A stretch of DNA of 64,000 nt from an uncultured Phycisphaerales bacterium (GTDB lineage Bacteria > Planctomycetota > Phycisphaerae > Tepidisphaerales > Tepidisphaeraceae). The stretch is taken from contig CAVWLP010000002.1 of the NCBI GenBank assembly GCA_963755915.1, positions 4,800,001 to 4,864,000 on the forward strand, written 5' to 3'. This document shows, in pieces, positions 28,776-36,611 of the stretch. Position 1 is the stretch's first letter, and each line of letters begins with the position of its first letter. The position numbers and the translations under genes are program-made. The notes beneath the pieces are model-generated. The model had not been told where the DNA came from. It made no database searches and saw only the letters and a program-made list of their open reading frames with translations.

Positions 28776-30769
28776 TCACTGCTCCCAGACCGCGACATCC
28801 GCCGGGCCCAGCGTCGCCGAGCCGACAAGAAATTTCGCTGACGCCGGCGCCGGCGTCGGCACGGCTTTGTCCTGGTAATTCAAGGCAATTCGATACGGCC
28901 CGCGCTGAAGAACCTGCACCCGAACCGGAACGAATTGCGCCTGCAACTTGTCCGGCCCAATCTGCCTCGCCAGCGATTCCACAAACGTATCCACCAGCGG
29001 CTGCTCGCTGAAGACGCCGAAATAATTCACCGTCCCCTTCCCGCATTTGGCCCGCGTGATCGCCGCCGCCCCCGTATAAAACTGGTCGGCATACGTCGCC
29101 AGCACCTCGGTGCCGGGATTCGCCGTCAGTTGATCTCCCCACACTCCCCACGCATAGCTGTTCCCCCCGAATTTGATCTGCCCGAACCGGTCATCGCGCA
29201 GCGAATCATATCCGTCAATGCTCGCGCCGATGAGCGGAAGGATCGGCGCTCCCCAAGGTCCCTCCCAAAGCTGCCCGGTGCGATCCATCAATCCCGTCCG
29301 GCAGGTCAGCACCAGATTTCCCCCGCCGCGCGCATAAGAATCGAACTGCCCCATGAGCTTATCATCGACCATCTGCACCCCTGGGGCGACAATCAGCGGC
29401 AAATCCGCCGGCCACTGGGACCCCGGCCGCAGGATACGAATCCTCACCCCCAGCCGGCTCAGCGCCGCATACCACGAAGTCAGCCAACGCGACTGATTCC
29501 ATCTCCGCGCCTGCGGCAGCGTCATGAAATACCAGAGCTGATCGAAATCCAGCACCAGCCCGACCGTATGCCGCGGGTCCTGCGCCTCGGCCGCGAATTT
29601 CGGAACCCGCGAAATATCCAGATTCCGCATCTCGCGAATCACCTGCCCAAACTGCTGCCCGCCCGGCGAAGGCGTCACCCCATCCGTCCCAACCAATCCG
29701 TGATGAAACAATTCGATCCCAAACCGCGGCTGGCGAAACCGATAGGTTGTCACAAATTCCGCCCCATGCGCAAACGCCGTCCAGATCCACAGCCGAATCG
29801 CACCCGGATAAACCCGAACCGGCACCCCGCTCCAGTTCACCTGCCCCGGCTGAAGCTCCATCAGCCCCCACCGGTTATGAAACCCCGCCATAAAATCGTG
29901 CAGCAGGCTGATCTGCGCCGGATCCGCGATTCGATATGTTTCGTCGTTCCCCTCCTTTTCCCACCCGGTCACCGGATAAGAATCCCACGCCATCAGCGAA
30001 AGATCCTTGGCAAAATCCCCCGGATCGCAATCCGGCTGAAGGTGCATGAAATTGGTTGTGATGAATCGCTTCCCGATCTTCGGACGCAGAATATCGCTCT
30101 GAATCCGGTTATACGCCGCGAAAGCCCAGCTCCAGAATCGCGACCCATCCAGCCCCTGGTGCGGATTGCCATACCGCGGATCGCGCGCGGCGGCAGAAGA
30201 ATCTGATTGAAATCCGTGTAATACGTATTCCAAAACTGATTCCCCCACGCCCGGTTTAAATTCTGAATATCCCCATATTTTTCCCGCAGCCATTTCCGAA
30301 ACGCCGCGTGCGTGATCTCCGACTGGTCGAACGGGTTGCTATATTCGTTATCGATCTGCCAGCCGATCACCGAGGGATGATCGCCAAACCGATCCGCCAT
30401 CGCCTGCACGATTCGCCGCGTGGCCGCCTGAAATTCCGGTGAAAGCGGATTGTAATGCCGCCGGCCACCAAAGCGCCCGCGAACGTTCCCTTCATACATC
30501 GGCAACGTCTCCGGCGACCCGTCGCTCAGCCAGATCGGTGGCGCCGCTGTCGGCGTGCACAGGATCACATCCAGCTTCCGCTTCGCCGCCAGATCCAGGC
30601 AATGGCTCAGCCAGTCAAACTTGAATTCGCCCGGCTTCGGCTCCATCTCGTACCACGCGAACTCAGCCATGTGCACGATCTGAAGCCCCATCTTCGCGAT
30701 GTTGTCAAAATCACGTTCCCATTGCTGCCGCGGCCACTGTTCGGGGTAATAATATGTCCCTATTTTCAT
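28776..30769 (-). CDS. GH42 beta-galactosidase (frameshift near 30190)
   Basis: GTYYYPEQWP, AEFAW..MEP, LCTPTAAPP.W, WQIDNE, MELQPGQVNW. Confidence 0.9.
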
Positions 30770-31302: not shown

Positions 31303-31707
31303 TCAAAATGGGAATTGTCTATCAAACGTGTGGACGTCGCGTCTGAGGCGTATACATACCGCACGAATCAGGCAGTCACCCAATTGGCGCGACGATTGAT
31401 CGCGACGAACGCGCACCGCAATGCGTTTCGCTTCTTCCCAGTCTTCCGGCACTATCCTTCCCTCGTCGAGGATCGTGAATTCATCCAGGTAATCTCGCGC
31501 TATGGCAACTCCCGCCGCACCTTGCGGGCCACATAAATATTCCACATAAATGGGCGAGAGGATTTCGTCGGTGCGTGTGAGTTCAATCAAGCGGCGGGCG
31601 CATTGTATCGCCTGGCGTTTGCCAATTTGTGTGACGTCAGCCGCTTTGAAATAAGCCTTCCAATGGTTGATCAGAACATTGGTGTCGAGGACGCGGCGGC
31701 GGCTCAT
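31303..31707 (-). CDS. PIN-domain (VapC-like) toxin
   Basis: VLDTNVLI, EYLCG, LGDCLI, HTFD. Confidence 0.85.
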   Translation of the reverse strand: MSRRRVLDTNVLINHWKAYFKAADVTQIGKRQAIQCARRLIELTRTDEILSPIYVEYLCGPQGAAGVAIARDYLDEFTILDEGRIVPEDWEEAKRIAVRVRRDQSSRQLGDCLIRAVCIRLRRDVHTFDRQFPF

Positions 31708-32145
31708 GACACTTCTTGGGGTGCGGCAAGTCCACTCACGTAGTCATCCCATTTCTCCGCGATGTTCCCAAGTATCGAAGCCAAATTGCGCGCCTCCATT
31801 CGGCGGACCGCGGAACACGACACGCGAACTTTAACTCCTCGTACCGCTTTCTCGATGTAAACCGGCCATTGGTTATGGTCCTTGCCCGCGCAACTTTTCC
31901 GCCAGCGATTCGATCAGGGCTGCGATCTCTTTTTTATGATCCCCCAGCCACTGCCTGGCCTCTTCGCAATCCGCGGGAAGTTGGCGACCCTGGCAATCGA
32001 CGTCGACATACCAAAGCAGCGCCGGATCTTCGTTCTTCAAATCTCCCGTCTCGAAGCTGGACAATACAGTATTGTCGTTGACCTCAACGCCCGTTCGAAC
32101 GCCTCCGTCAACCCGTTTCTGACGATAAAAACTAATCTTTGGCAT
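31704..32145 (-). CDS. Hypothetical protein coupled to the PIN gene (~146 aa, frameshift near 31885); candidate antitoxin
   Basis: MPKISFYRQKRVDGGVRTG... continues in another frame as DHNQWPVYIEK...CSAVRR...PQEVS*, whose TGA overlaps the PIN ATG (ATGA). Confidence 0.65.
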
Positions 32146-32198
32146 GACAATATTACCGACTTCATTATAAGGCGCAATCTGGCCACCACCAAGAGGAT

Positions 32199-32784
32199 TT
32201 ACAAATGGTCGTCGCCAATCCATGCGTAAACGCACGTGTTCCTCGGCTTCCCACCCACGGTCATGCTGTCGCACCTCATAATTCCCTCCAATTGAAAGCC
32301 GGCTAATTCTGCGACGCGGCGGCTGCGCGCGTTCAGTTCGTCCACGCGAATCTGAATTCGCTTGAACTTAACCCGGTCGCGAAGCATCTGGACGAGCGCG
32401 CCGACAGCCTCGGTCACAAATCCCTGCCCGGTTTTGTCGCTGCGGAGCCAATAGCCGATTTCGCAGCTGGGAATTTCCCAATCATGTGGATGTGCCCCGA
32501 TCGTGCCGAGATGGTCGGGCGAGTCTTTAGCAAAGATCAGGTATGGAAGTTGTTTTCGCGTGAGAAATTCGGAAGCGGCGCGACGGCACCATTCTTCGCC
32601 GGATTGCTCGTTGTATTCGTCAGTCGCCCACGGCATCCAGCGCTTGAGCTCGGGAAGTGAGTGCTGAACGGAGGGCCAGACGATCGCACCATCGCCTGCG
32701 CGGCGTGCGCATTGTTAAGCGCGCACTCGAGACCTCGCTCGGAATATCCAACAAAATCGGATTGATTTTCTCGTTTCCCATCAT
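32199..32784 (-). CDS. GNAT acetyltransferase, RimJ/RimL family (frameshift near 32650-32700)
   Basis: N-terminus NPILLDIP...RL..R.P; EIGYWL...[26 protein letters not shown] overlap with aroF. Confidence 0.85.
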
Positions 32785-33802
32785 GCCGTCCGATCGACGG
32801 CCGTCGCGATCCTTCGGATCGCCGCCATCATTTCAGTGAATTGCTTGGGCGTGATCGACTGCGCCCCATCCGTCAGCGCATGCTCCGGATCATTGTGAAC
32901 CTCCACGATCAATCCATCCGCCCCGGCCGCGATCGCCGCCCGGCACATCGAATCCACCAGGTAACTCTTCCCCGTCCCCTGGCTCGGATCGATAATCACC
33001 GGCAAATGGCTCACGCGATGCAATTCCGGAACCGCCGCCAGCGCCAGCGTATTTCGCACATAATCCTCATACGTCCGAATCCCGCGCTCGCACAGCATTA
33101 CCCGTGAATTCCCCCGCGACATGATGTATTCCGCCGCGAGCAAAAATTCCTCCAGCGTCGCGCTCATCCCGCGCTTCAGCAACACCGGCTTACTCTGTTC
33201 CCCCACCGCGTTCAGCAGATTGAAATTCTGCATATTCCTCGCCCCCACTTGAAGCACGTCTGCGTACTGGCCGACCAGCCCAACCTGGTCGATCGACATC
33301 ACCTCCGTCACCACCGCCAGCCCCGTCTCCTCGCGCGCAGCGCCAGAAGCTCCAATCCCTTTTCCCCCATCCCCTGAAAGGAATACGGATTCGTCCGCGG
33401 CTTAAACGCCCCGCCCCGCAGCCCCACCGCCCCCGCTTCCTTCACCGCATGCGCAATCTCCAGCACCTGCGACTTACTCTCCACGCTGCACGGCCCCGCA
33501 ATCACCCCGACCGCAGGTCCGCCAATCTTTGCATCGATCTGTCCACCCAGGGGAACGACGGTTCGCTCCTTCTTCACCTCCCTGGAAGCCATCTTGTACG
33601 GCGCCAATATCGGCACCACCCGGTCCACTCCGGGCGCCGATTCCAGCACCGACCGATCCTTGAACCGGTCGTCCCCGATCACCGCGACAACCGTTCGTTC
33701 CTCTCCGACGATGACGTGATCTTTGAGTCCCATTTCGCGCACCAGTTGAATGACATGCTCGACCTGCTTCTGAGCCGAGCCCGGTTTCATCACCACGATC
33801 AT
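32781..33802 (-). CDS. aroF: 3-deoxy-7-phosphoheptulonate (DAHP) synthase, type I-beta with N-terminal regulatory domain (frameshift near 33335)
   Basis: [64 protein letters not shown]. Confidence 0.95.
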
Positions 33803-33852
33803 GCGACCTCCGCGAAAAAAGTCCCGAAAAGTTCTGGCCAAAAAAGCCCAAC

Positions 33853-33881
33853 AAAAAAACCTCAGGACTTTTGTCCTGAGG
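33853..33881 (-). terminator. Attenuator terminator upstream of aroF
   Basis: CCTCAGGAC-AAAA-GTCCTGAGG followed by T7. Confidence 0.9.
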
Positions 33882-33914
33882 CCGCCGATTTCAAACCAAT
33901 TTTATCGATGAAGC

Positions 33915-33989
33915 TCAGGACGCAATATGGGTGCGGGGATAAAAATATCCGCCAAACCAACCCCAATATCGCAGGTCCGAAGACTTCAT
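33915..33989 (-). CDS. aroF leader peptide MKSSDLRYWGWFGGYFYPRTHIAS
   Basis: Seven aromatic codons (3 Tyr, 2 Trp, 2 Phe) in a 10-codon window; the stop region GTCCTGAG can pair with the terminator 5' arm. Confidence 0.9.
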   Translation of the reverse strand: MKSSDLRYWGWFGGYFYPRTHIAS

Positions 33990-34000
33990 ACTCTTGCCCC

Positions 34001-34030
34001 AATATAGCATTTAATTAGCTCAAATGTCAA
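34001..34030 (-). promoter_or_regulatory. Sigma70-type promoter of the aroF leader
   Basis: TTGACA-18 nt-TATATT. Confidence 0.7.
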
Positions 34031-34108
34031 TTTTTCCCCGCGAATATCGCGGCAAGGCAGGGCCTTAGTGTACAGCCAATTGCCGGCGTGGTAATAATGA
34101 TACAGTTC

Positions 34109-34182
34109 CGGGGCGTAGCTCAGCTTGGCAGAGCGTCTGGTTTGGGACCAGAAGGCCGTAGGTTCAAATCCTATCGCCCCGA
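34109..34182 (+). tRNA. tRNA-Pro (TGG)
   Basis: Cloverleaf CGGGGCG...CGCCCCGA; anticodon arm TCTGG-TTTGGGA-CCAGA; GGTTCAAATC T-arm; CCA not encoded. Confidence 0.97.
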
Positions 34183-34285
34183 CTTGACGAGAGGAATATC
34201 GTCCGCCGGCTTGCGTATTCGCCTCATTGCGCCATTGAGTCTTATGCAAACTTTCACGGTTCGAAGAACATCGGGAGCAGGCGTT

Positions 34286-34729
34286 ATGAAACCGAAACAG
34301 AGCCAACTGCCGACCGAAGAAGATTTCCTCGATCCCAGGTCACAGGACTTGGACGAACGGCACTCCATCACGATGTTTCTTGGGAAGACGCAAGAAGAGG
34401 CGGAGACTATGTTTCGTCAAAACTTCCTCTTCTACCAAGAAGACTTAACGTGCATGCGGGCTCCCGCATTTCGTTTCTATGTTATCCCAGCGATTAAATA
34501 CCTCCTGAGCAAAGAGGCAAACGGGGACTCGGACGCGGCAAGTACCTTCTGCTATGTGCTTGAGTCGCGGCTGGAGCGCGATGTTGACGCTCTTGTTCCC
34601 ATCGCTTCAATTGTAGTTGACGCCATCCGGCAGATCCTTGCTGATTTTGATCGTTTCGAGTGTTCTCCCGAGATATACGGTGACGTTCCCGCCCGTTATC
34701 GGGCTGTAGCCGTTCGGCTGACGGCATAA
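34286..34729 (+). CDS. Hypothetical protein (147 aa), orphan immunity-like
   Basis: SD GGGAG; F.GK...EA..MF......QEDL..M...AFRFY; lower GC; directly downstream of the tRNA. Confidence 0.65.
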   Translation: MKPKQSQLPTEEDFLDPRSQDLDERHSITMFLGKTQEEAETMFRQNFLFYQEDLTCMRAPAFRFYVIPAIKYLLSKEANGDSDAASTFCYVLESRLERDVDALVPIASIVVDAIRQILADFDRFECSPEIYGDVPARYRAVAVRLTA

Positions 34730-34900
34730 ACGCACAAAAAGTTCAACCGGTGTCTTGTCACTCCGACGCACTGCTGCGAATAGAGCAGTGGAGAAATAGA
34801 ACAGGAGACCAGTAGACAAGAAAACCTCCAGAATTGAGTTGTCCCACCGCGGCCGTCACCCCTTTCTCTTCCATCGGTTAGTTCACAAACTGAGGCCCCA

Positions 34901-36611
34901 GTGAAAGACGGCACAACCGATCTCACCGCCCAGCCCAACCTCGATGTCTCATCCGGGCAAACCACCTGGCCCCTCCGCTTTTGGCTGATCACCGCACTCA
35001 CCGGCGTCTTCGCCGGCCTTATCGGCGGCGCCCTCATGAAGTTGCTTGCCGCCCTCGAGCATCTCGCCTGGACCTACGACTCCGGAACATATCTCGAAGC
35101 GGTCACCCGTGCCTCCCCCTCCCGGCACATCCTCATGCTTCTCACCGCCGGTCTCCTCGTCGGCGTCGGCGGCGCCATCATCTCCAAAACTTTCGGCCCC
35201 GCCGGCGATGCCGAAGCCGCCGTCTGGTTTCGCTCCGGTTATCTCCCCCTGCTGTCCACCCTCGTCAAATCCGTCAATTCCATCGCCACCGTCGCCCTCG
35301 GCAGTTCCCTCGGACGAGAATCCCCCATCAAGCAGGCCGGCGGTGCCGTCGCCAGTTGGATGGCCCAGCACACCCACCTCTCCCGATCCGAGCACCGCGT
35401 TCTCGTCGCCTGCGGCATCGGCGCCGGCATGGCCGCCGCCTACAACGTCCCCGTCGGTGCCGCACTCTTCACCGTCGAAGTCCTCCTCGGAAGCATCACC
35501 CTTCGCCTCGCCCTTCCCGACTTGCTCTGCTCCGGCGTCGCCACCGCCGCTTCCTGGCTCTTCCTGCCCACCGGCCCAATCTACCGCGTCCCCGAATATC
35601 CCCTCTCCGTTCAACTCACCCTCTGGTCCCTCCTTGCCGGCCCCCTGCTCGGCCTCGCCACCATCCCCCTGGTCCGTCTCATCGGCTGGGCCGACGCCCA
35701 AAAACCGCGCCGGCGCCGCCATCTATATCGCCCCCGTCCTCCTCCTCACCCTCCTCGGCGCTCTCTCCATCGTCTATCCCCAATTACTCGGCAACGGCAA
35801 AGACGACGTCCAGCTCGCCTTCGAAGACAAGTTCGCAATCGATCTCCTCCTAATCCTCCCCGCGTTGAAACTCCTCGCAACCGCCGGCTGTCTCAGCGCC
35901 GGCGCCTCCGGCGGACTCTTCACCCCCACCATGACCATCGGTGCTCTCCTCGGCGGCCTTCTTGGCCACGCCTGGAACTCCGTCTGCCCCGGCGCATCCA
36001 TGGGCAGTTGCTCCGTGATCGGCTCCTGCGCCTTCCTTGCCGCCTCCAGTCAAGGCCCCATTTCCGCGCTCGTTCTGGTCTTGGAATTAACCCGCCACGT
36101 CGATGGAACGATGGTCCCCATGCTCATCGCCGTAGCCGGCGCAATGCTCGTAGCCCGCCGAATCGAAGCCCGGTCCATTTACTCCATCCGCTTGCATCTA
36201 CGAAAGCCAAAACCAACCTTACCCACCTCCGCACAACTCCCCGCCTTCGCCGGCACGATTTCCCCCGATTTCGCCACGATATCCTCCGCCGAGGCCTACG
36301 CGACGGTCGTTCAGCATCTCTGGCTCCGCCGCCTCAATCCCCCCGTCTACGTCTTAGACGACCACGGAAAGCTGCTCGGAAAGATCGCCCTGGAATCCCT
36401 CGACATCGGCTCCCTCGGCGCCATCCCCATCGAAGCCGCCAAAGCCGCCGACCTCGTCATCCCCGTCTCCACGCTCTCCTCCCAAATGAGCGAGACGGAA
36501 ATCGCCCACCGCCTCGCCACCGCCGCCGAGCCCGAGCTGCCCGTGGTCGATTCCGAAACGGGCCGAATGATCGGCGTCGTGCCAAACAAAAGCCCCGTCA
36601 ACGAACCGTAG
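34901..36611 (+). CDS. ClC chloride channel / H+/Cl- transporter with CBS-like C-terminus (frameshift near 35710)
   Basis: SLGRESP, AAAYNVPVGAALF..EVLL, LLGNG, GGLFTP. Confidence 0.9.

Follow-up and report, generated by a model that had tools for sequence, protein, structure and literature searches.

A short open reading frame (ORF) rich in aromatic codons, lying between a promoter of its own and an intrinsic terminator just upstream of a gene for 3-deoxy-D-arabino-heptulosonate 7-phosphate (DAHP) synthase, is very probably a transcription attenuator of the ribosome-mediated (leader-peptide) type, acting on one of the two DAHP synthase genes of its genome. The locus lies in a 64,000-nucleotide (nt) stretch, here called the window, from an uncultured Phycisphaerales bacterium of the family Tepidisphaeraceae (assembly GCA_963755915.1, contig CAVWLP010000002.1, positions 4,800,001 to 4,864,000). 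DAHP synthase catalyses the common first step towards all three aromatic amino acids, phenylalanine (Phe), tyrosine (Tyr) and tryptophan (Trp); Escherichia coli uses three isozymes for it. The evidence comes from the layout of the leader, from its conservation and coding signature among relatives, from covariation of its stems, and from modelled folds of the competing structures. Positions are those of the stretch throughout, and all elements of the leader are on the minus strand:

34025..34030, minus strand: -35 hexamer TTGACA of a promoter-like site
34001..34006, minus strand: -10 hexamer TATATT of the promoter-like site, with TG before it (extended -10)
33915..33989, minus strand: leader ORF of 24 codons plus TGA, MKSSDLRYWGWFGGYFYPRTHIAS, from ORF reading
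33960..33989, minus strand: region 1, the 5' strand of the long 1:2 (protector) helix, codons 1-10, from the minimum-free-energy fold
33939..33968, minus strand: putative regulatory block, codons 8-17, Y W G W F G G Y F Y, from codon reading
33935..33953, minus strand: inner hairpin P1, GG-C-GGAUA UUUU UAUCC-CC, from the fold
33914..33923, minus strand: core of region 2, GCGUCCUGAG (DNA GCGTCCTGAG), the 5' strand of the antiterminator, including the stop UGA at 33917-33915, from the sequence
33858..33883, minus strand: intrinsic terminator hairpin, with region 3 GGCCUCAGGAC at 33883-33873, loop AAAA and region 4 GUCCUGAGGUU
33853..33859, minus strand: run of seven T (T7), the predicted 3' end of the attenuated transcript
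33807..33811, minus strand: Shine-Dalgarno sequence GGAGG of the DAHP synthase gene, 41 nt past the T run
32781..33802, minus strand: DAHP synthase gene, type I-beta with an N-terminal ferredoxin-like domain, from Pfam and NCBIfam

The promoter is sigma-70-like, with an 18-nt spacer and 11 of 12 positions matching. Between its ATG (33989-33987) and its TGA (33917-33915), the leader ORF carries three Tyr, two Trp and two Phe codons within codons 8-17; P1 is built from its Gly-Gly-Tyr-Phe-Tyr-Pro codons. The core of region 2 is an exact copy of the 3' arm of the terminator and is therefore able to pair with the 5' arm instead: its partner is 33880-33873 (CUCAGGAC), the antiterminator core GTCCTGAG being complementary to CTCAGGAC of that arm. 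The terminator begins after a spacer of 31 nt from the leader stop and reads, as DNA, GGCCTCAGGAC (33883-33873), AAAA and GTCCTGAGG (33868-33860), the 3' arm of the hairpin also being written GUCCUGAGG(UU); the stem is perfect, with 11 pairs, six of them G-C. The ATG of the DAHP synthase gene, at 33802, is 50 nt past the T run, and the GGAGG core before it is kept in nearly all upstream regions of relatives (as GCGGAGG within the genus). Folding of the 156-nt leader gives -56.7 kcal/mol, against -44.6 +/- 3.8 for shuffled sequences (z = -3.2), and none of 200 shuffles is as stable.

A preliminary description of this DNA had named the promoter, the leader ORF, its aromatic codon counts, the antiterminator, the terminator and the 50-nt distance to the gene, and each is found at its place on the minus strand. 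The protector pairing that it called available (GGAC..GCGATAT.GGG with CCCATATTGCGTCC) turns out to belong to the minimum-free-energy fold of the leader. The design it proposed, that of trpL and pheL placed before a DAHP synthase gene, is recovered in the window, with the 2:3 and 3:4 pairings and a predicted 1:2 pairing. Its authoring model also suggested looking in relatives for a conserved aromatic upstream ORF (uORF) and for covariation of the stems, and folding the alternative structures; both exercises speak for the proposal, with coding and base-pair signatures in the first case and mask-dependent folds in the second.

Two smaller features of the leader RNA may be recorded here. The spacer between leader stop and terminator can form a small hairpin, CGAU...AUCG (33886-33907, minus strand), of which the letters TCGA...ATCG are kept in genus-level relatives. 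Farther down, a motif C[ACG]GGA[CT] at 33819-33826, some 11-19 nt 5' of the GGAGG of the enzyme gene, is present by eye in all ten genus-level sequences (L003-L011 and the window); its core is the same as that of the terminator 5' arm, which would allow pairing with either region 4 or region 2 in RNA that reads through.

Conservation of the arrangement is extensive. With the N-terminal 153 residues of the DAHP synthase as query, an orthologue is present in 55 of 61 related genomes, the window's own included. These related genomes and 80 loci of a public genome collection make up a set of 110 loci with 88 distinct upstream regions; the closest loci belong to Tepidisphaeraceae, Tepidisphaerales and Phycisphaerae (Planctomycetota). 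A leader was called canonical when a uORF with at least five aromatic residues in 12 ends in CTGA and is followed by a terminator. The canonical arrangement occurs in 62 of the 88 regions, on the same strand as the DAHP synthase gene and directly before it; the cultured Fontivita pretiosa (L079) and a Humisphaera strain (L109) are among the carriers. Eleven of the other 26 regions have a divergent aromatic uORF and then a hairpin with a T run. Some of these 11 have a different terminator sequence, 250-340 nt from the enzyme gene, and where the sequence was read (L027 and similar divergent loci) a small ORF is found between terminator and enzyme gene. The remaining 15 of the 88 regions contain no aromatic uORF with terminator; for three of these, fewer than 310 nt were available.

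The reach of the family was gauged in two further ways. Sixteen additional loci from other Phycisphaerae genomes yielded an aromatic uORF with a terminator in five cases: two more from Tepidisphaeraceae and one each from three other families. A covariance model built from the 62 canonical leaders (R1) matches 18 of 20 sampled Tepidisphaeraceae genomes, once each; against 130 genomes of other families in the class it gives only four weak matches, with E values from 1e-4 to 9e-4. This distribution of R1, taken with the uORFs in other families, implies that the sequence family is essentially one of Tepidisphaeraceae, the idea being wider in the class.

In 20 of 86 relatives (for example L014, L016, L021, L025, L029, L050, L061, L066 and L074) the stretch from terminator to enzyme gene contains a second short uORF, with the motif (Y/F/H)-W-R; the window and its genus lack it. 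It mostly starts 35-60 nt before the enzyme gene, and its stop overlaps the enzyme start (ATGA). Aromatic ORFs of a similar 'YWR' kind are found before the gene in other families of Phycisphaerae. The overlap of such a uORF with the enzyme start suggests an added translational coupling or control in those genomes.

The leader ORFs of the relatives look like translated genes. Aligned from the stop codon (n = 62), they give the consensus F (position -17, 35 of 62), G (32), F (36), W (-14, 45), F (-13, 50), any residue, G (46), Y (49), F (46), Y (38) and P (-7, 41). A Met or Val codon (ATG or GTG) stands at position -24 in 47 of the 62, and the ORF has 22-25 codons in most relatives. Where a residue is kept, its codon is free to change: TTT and TTC split 19/16 and 24/12 at Phe positions, TAT and TAC split 27/22 at Tyr, and all four Gly codons are used at -16. 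Residues at the N-terminus and from -6 to -3 show free variation. Region 2 includes the last two codons, and their third positions are almost fixed (GCG in 48 of 62, TCC or TTC in 56 of 62). Phe, Trp and Tyr codons occur together in 61 of the 62 leaders, with means of 4.0 Phe, 1.2 Trp and 2.2 Tyr in the last 20 codons. This is the codon pattern that a translated leader overlapping an RNA element should display.

The RNA element has its own signature. A terminator hairpin with a T-rich tail is found in all 62 canonical relatives (mean -20.2 kcal/mol); in one alignment (A2), 95.9% of its cells are paired and four of its pairs have changed on both sides. The stop-codon segment can form a duplex with the 5' arm of the terminator in 62 of 62 as well, at a mean of -17.9 kcal/mol. 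P1 is notable: six or seven of its seven pairs have changed on both sides, for example from A-U to G-C, in alignment A2 and in a second alignment, A1. The wobble positions of its Gly and Tyr codons change together (A-U 24, G-C 9, G-U 9-10, C-G 4-5), and the stem is kept where the residues differ (AYFYA, WYFYQP, GYFTT). Taken jointly in A2, terminator and P1 have 88.6% of cells paired, and both sides have changed in 11 of their 18 pairs; not one of 500 shuffles attains these values, and controls slid along the alignment are 36-50% paired. Antiterminator and P1 in A1 have 84.5% of cells paired, and 500 shuffles again include none that equals the alignment in percentage paired, in the number of cells changed on both sides or in the covariation score.

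The antiterminator taken singly is paired in 89.5% of cells (n = 62). Its three extension pairs have changed on both sides, in two to seven sequences each. In L031, judged by eye, a three-way compensatory change is found (GTCTTGAG, CGAGAC, GTCTCG), and leaders with the terminator CCCGGGAC tolerate an A-C mismatch in the antiterminator. In the eight-pair core no pair has changed on both sides; two are invariant, and the others vary only by G-U wobbles or unpaired cells. This invariance is due in part to the stop codon that the core holds. CTGA is invariant in the 62 relatives, but CTGA was also the criterion by which they were selected.

As for the protector, folds of RNA cut before region 3 pair at least six of 11 nt of region 2 with upstream sequence in 59 of 62 leaders, mostly with codons 2-7. 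RNAalifold predicted only the terminator from the whole alignment; from columns 19-106, the leader alone, it predicted nothing, not even P1. The 1:2 helix being missing from these consensus predictions, it is single-sequence folds that carry it.

Modelled behaviour of the switch agrees with attenuation by a ribosome. When each of the 62 leaders is folded with a 30-nt ribosome mask, the outcome depends on where the mask is put. Free RNA forms the terminator in 60 cases and the antiterminator in two; a ribosome at the stop codon leaves the terminator in 62 of 62 and the antiterminator in none; a ribosome at codon -14 (the Trp position), with region 4 not yet transcribed, leaves the antiterminator in 54 of 62.

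The proposed sequence of events is then as follows. Transcription would start a few bases 5' of the leader ATG, and a ribosome would read the 24-codon leader while RNA polymerase moves on. With charged tRNA-Phe, tRNA-Trp and tRNA-Tyr all plentiful, the ribosome would reach UGA and cover region 2, because the stop codon lies inside that region; regions 3 and 4 would be left to form the terminator, and transcription would stop at the T7 run, 50 nt short of the gene. Should any one of the three charged tRNAs be scarce, the ribosome would stall in Y-W-G-W-F-G-G-Y-F-Y, keeping region 1 and P1 open and region 2 free; region 2 would pair with the newly made region 3, no terminator would form, and the gene would be transcribed. 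If there were no translation at all, the 1:2 pairing would form and the terminator with it: the default would be off.

The sequence leaves little space for a ribosome-binding site before the leader. The -10 hexamer ends 11 nt before the leader ATG, which predicts a 5' untranslated region (UTR) of only about 4-5 nt in the window. Among the 62 relatives, 46 have a promoter-like site (at least five of six positions in the -35 hexamer, at least eight of 12 in total) ending 4-12 nt before an in-frame start codon, the commonest distances being 7 and 10 nt; 34 of these starts are ATG and 12 are GTG. There is no room for a Shine-Dalgarno sequence, so the leader ORF, judged from spacing alone, is probably read from a leaderless or almost leaderless transcript.

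Several points weigh against attenuation of this kind, or against its sensing all three amino acids. No Shine-Dalgarno sequence precedes the leader, and 12 of the 46 promoter-proximal starts are GTG. Transcription start, leader translation and termination at the T run are each inferred from the sequence. The invariant antiterminator core neither supports nor contradicts the pairing. The 1:2 helix scores a mean z of only -1.1 against dinucleotide shuffles, with 18 of 62 leaders at p<=0.05, and its register differs between relatives, which precludes clean covariation. The shuffle controls overstate significance, because the relatives are phylogenetically close. When the whole RNA is folded at equilibrium with a ribosome at codon -14, the terminator wins in 40 of 62 leaders and the antiterminator in 22; the outcome would therefore have to be decided kinetically, as in classical attenuators. 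As regards specificity, most leaders have one Trp codon only, and in the aroR leader of Corynebacterium glutamicum a Tyr codon is flanked by Phe codons, yet Tyr availability is without effect according to the consulted portion of PMC11802643.

These last two points lead to a different account of what is sensed. The attenuator would be the same, but would act in effect as a sensor of Phe (or of Phe and Tyr), with Trp and perhaps Tyr contributing little. The predominance of Phe codons among the leaders fits this account, as does the response of aroR to Phe limitation, again in the portion of PMC11802643 consulted. Conservation of the other codons argues in the opposite direction: Trp, a rare residue, occurs in 61 of the 62 leaders, in 45 of them at codon -14, and TGGTTT is mostly unpaired in the folds examined, so that RNA structure gives no obvious reason for keeping it; Tyr is kept at -10 in 49 of 62 and at -8 in 38 of 62, with TAT/TAC variation; and the leader of the window itself has two Trp codons. 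A sensor narrowed to Phe is accordingly a tentative alternative, somewhat improbable on these counts, and sensing of all three aromatic amino acids is plausible from the codons that have been conserved, though the presence of a codon does not amount to a response.

It might also be supposed that the unit is not regulatory for its neighbour at all: the ORF would encode a small hydrophobic peptide with some function, or the transcript would be a small RNA ending at a terminator of its own, and the DAHP synthase gene would simply lie next to it. A promoter and a terminator of its own would be expected to yield a stable RNA of about 140 nt in any case, and attenuator RNAs and leader peptides that act in trans do exist, such as rnTrpL and peTrpL of Sinorhizobium in the excerpted literature. 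A free-standing gene would nonetheless have no need of a stop codon embedded in the complement of the terminator 5' arm; nor would it be expected to precede DAHP synthase directly, and on its strand, in every one of the 62 canonical loci; its N- and C-terminal residues would not be free to vary around a kept aromatic block; and no separate promoter for the enzyme is reported between terminator and gene. This makes the supposition very unlikely. Equally improbable is a translation-independent switch, in which binding of a protein or small ligand to P1 or to the 1:2 helix would decide between terminator and antiterminator, with the ORF as a bystander. P1 and the terminator do covary and the ORF does lack a Shine-Dalgarno sequence, but the Phe, Gly and Tyr codons change synonymously, the start codon keeps its distance in 47 of 62 and most leaders have 22-25 codons, a pattern that speaks for translation; the lack of any Rfam match at E<=1, and conserved residues that are exactly the end products of the pathway, also tell against such a switch.

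The gene under the proposed control is assigned from its domains. DAHP_snth_FXD (PF18152) matches at 2.1e-23, and DAHP_synth_1 (PF00793) at 2e-15 and 1.4e-49 on the two halves of the gene; the NCBIfam model NF006421 (3-deoxy-7-phosphoheptulonate synthase) scores 170 and 282 bits on the halves, its cut-off of 335 being set for the whole protein. The gene is in two halves through a 1-nt deletion (one G) near 33338, which breaks it into ORFs 33308-33841 and 32781-33314; the reference is a relative that is 97% identical over the N-terminal 153 residues and has an intact ORF of 338 residues. An assembly error is the likelier cause, since two other genes, a GH42 gene of the window and the DAHP synthase paralogue, are also broken and completeness is 81% (the assembly has three contigs). 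The GH42 beta-galactosidase (28776-30769, minus strand) falls into overlapping ORFs 29993-30769 and 28776-30293, a probable assembly frameshift.

The paralogue limits what the attenuator can govern. This second DAHP synthase, with the same N-terminal domain and about 45% identical, lies on contig C2 at about 2505000-2507300 (minus strand) and is frame-broken; a second DAHP synthase at about that identity is found in most related genomes also. No aromatic leader of this kind was found upstream of it in its own genome or in ten relatives, where ORFs were examined and terminators were not scanned for; in three of the ten, ORFs before the paralogue have four or five aromatic residues in 12, none of them showing the leader motif. 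The attenuator would therefore govern one of two isozymes and not the whole pathway entry. The preliminary description had placed a single leader in charge of that entry, and this part of it is weakened by the second gene.

On the 3' side of the DAHP synthase gene follow a GNAT acetyltransferase (32199-32636) and then a PIN-domain ORF, with no aromatic-pathway gene; the PIN-domain ORF (31303-31707, minus strand), downstream of the acetyltransferase, is possibly the toxin of a toxin-antitoxin pair. On the other side, a tRNA-Pro gene (anticodon TGG; 34109-34183, plus strand) diverges from the leader promoter, with a weak promoter-like site at 34069-34098. Overlapping ORFs at 33449-34018 (plus), 33474-33854 (minus), 33986-34306 (minus) and 34088-34729 (plus) have no Pfam match.

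Within its genome the leader is single. A six-frame scan of the whole 6.6-Mb genome for frames in which six or more of 10 residues are aromatic and a hairpin with a T run comes next passed seven of 127 such frames through a loose filter, and a perfect stem directly before the T run is found in this leader only. The other six candidates have irregular hairpins, in a scan that was not aimed upstream of trp, phe or tyr genes. The covariance model from the relatives likewise finds one true copy; a second match (contig C2, 3062603-3062730, 33.5 bits) was rejected as the terminator after a gene with a PEP-CTERM-like tail, not a leader. Also set aside is a longer ORF of 31 residues from an in-frame ATG at 34010: that ATG is inside the -10 region and absent from relatives, and its use is unlikely. 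Searches of families added nothing to the leader: cmscan of 32000-36000 against Rfam at E<=1 returned no family for it, only the tRNA-Pro and two chance-level matches elsewhere, and the leader peptide matches no Pfam or NCBIfam family. In a metatranscriptome run (X1) a tenth of the sampled words occurred; its contigs cover only 33578-33824 and are only 95-99% alike, therefore from a relative. They have no bearing on the leader or on attenuation, since transcript ends do not show in contigs and a lack of cover is not evidence of absence.

Whether such a leader had been described before was pursued in the literature. The portion consulted of Naville and Gautheret 2010 (PMC2965389) gives leader-peptide systems as then known only from Proteobacteria and Actinobacteria, to which Firmicutes were added. 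In what was available of a 2016 paper on leader genes (PMC4833913), Planctomycetes figure only in statistics of uORF distance; a survey of attenuation across bacteria cited there, Lopatovskaya et al. 2010, may bear on novelty. The terms aroF, aroG, aroH and DAHP are absent from Seliverstov et al. 2005 (PMC1262725). A full-text search, with most subscription journals beyond its reach, returned no leader-peptide attenuation described for Planctomycetota or Phycisphaer*, in keeping with the statement of the preliminary description that it knew of none in this lineage; a search for DAHP synthase with leader peptide yielded, besides the C. glutamicum case, only papers on engineering of E. coli. In terms of sequence, this is a new family, in a phylum for which no published example was found.

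If the proposal is true, classical attenuation extends to another phylum, and acts there at the committed first aromatic step by way of a mixed block of Phe, Trp and Tyr codons. The leader would be a compact natural sensor of about 140 nt, possibly of use as a biosensor of aromatic amino acids. Annotators of Tepidisphaeraceae genomes also gain a rule for recognising an unannotated small gene, together with an RNA family. No concept is overturned; the mechanism is that of the textbook. A more ambitious version can be imagined, combining leaderless translation, true integration of three aromatic charged-tRNA pools at the entry to the shikimate pathway, and membership in an old, widespread and so far undescribed class of aromatic uORFs before DAHP synthase, in which a second 'YWRF' mini-ORF, found in many relatives, would add translational to transcriptional control; as a package this is possible but doubtful.

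Three known systems invite comparison. The closest precedent comes from C. glutamicum, where leader-peptide control of DAHP synthase itself is already known; the original study of its aroR-aroF attenuator is said to be that of Neshat et al. in 2014. There, in the portion of PMC11802643 consulted, the aroR leader peptide (Phe-Tyr-Phe) precedes an operon containing aroF, and stalling under Phe limitation raises transcription. The likeness, as far as the parts consulted go, is in the plan: a short leader ORF with aromatic codons before an operon with a DAHP synthase gene. The differences, in a comparison by description only, are those of phylum (Planctomycetota here, Actinomycetota there) and of the leader, which is longer here and has about seven aromatic codons, Trp included.

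The leaders of the thr and ilv operons of enterobacteria are multivalent, carrying codons for several amino acids in one leader. The present leader is like them in this respect, and so could integrate several charged-tRNA pools. It is unlike them in its amino acids and its pathway; its multivalency is read from the codons alone.

The four-region logic of trpL-trpEDCBA and pheL-pheA of E. coli, the Yanofsky model as set out in the consulted part of PMC11802643, is found here too: a leader ORF, a 2:3 antiterminator, and a 3:4 terminator followed by a U run, with a 1:2 protector that in the present leader is putative. As in trpL and pheL, the regulatory codons lie in region 1, and a terminating ribosome would block region 2. 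Unlike those leaders, the one described here has its stop codon inside region 2, no Shine-Dalgarno sequence and a predicted 5' UTR of about 0-5 nt; it mixes the codons of three aromatic amino acids in one block; and it would control the common first step rather than a terminal branch.

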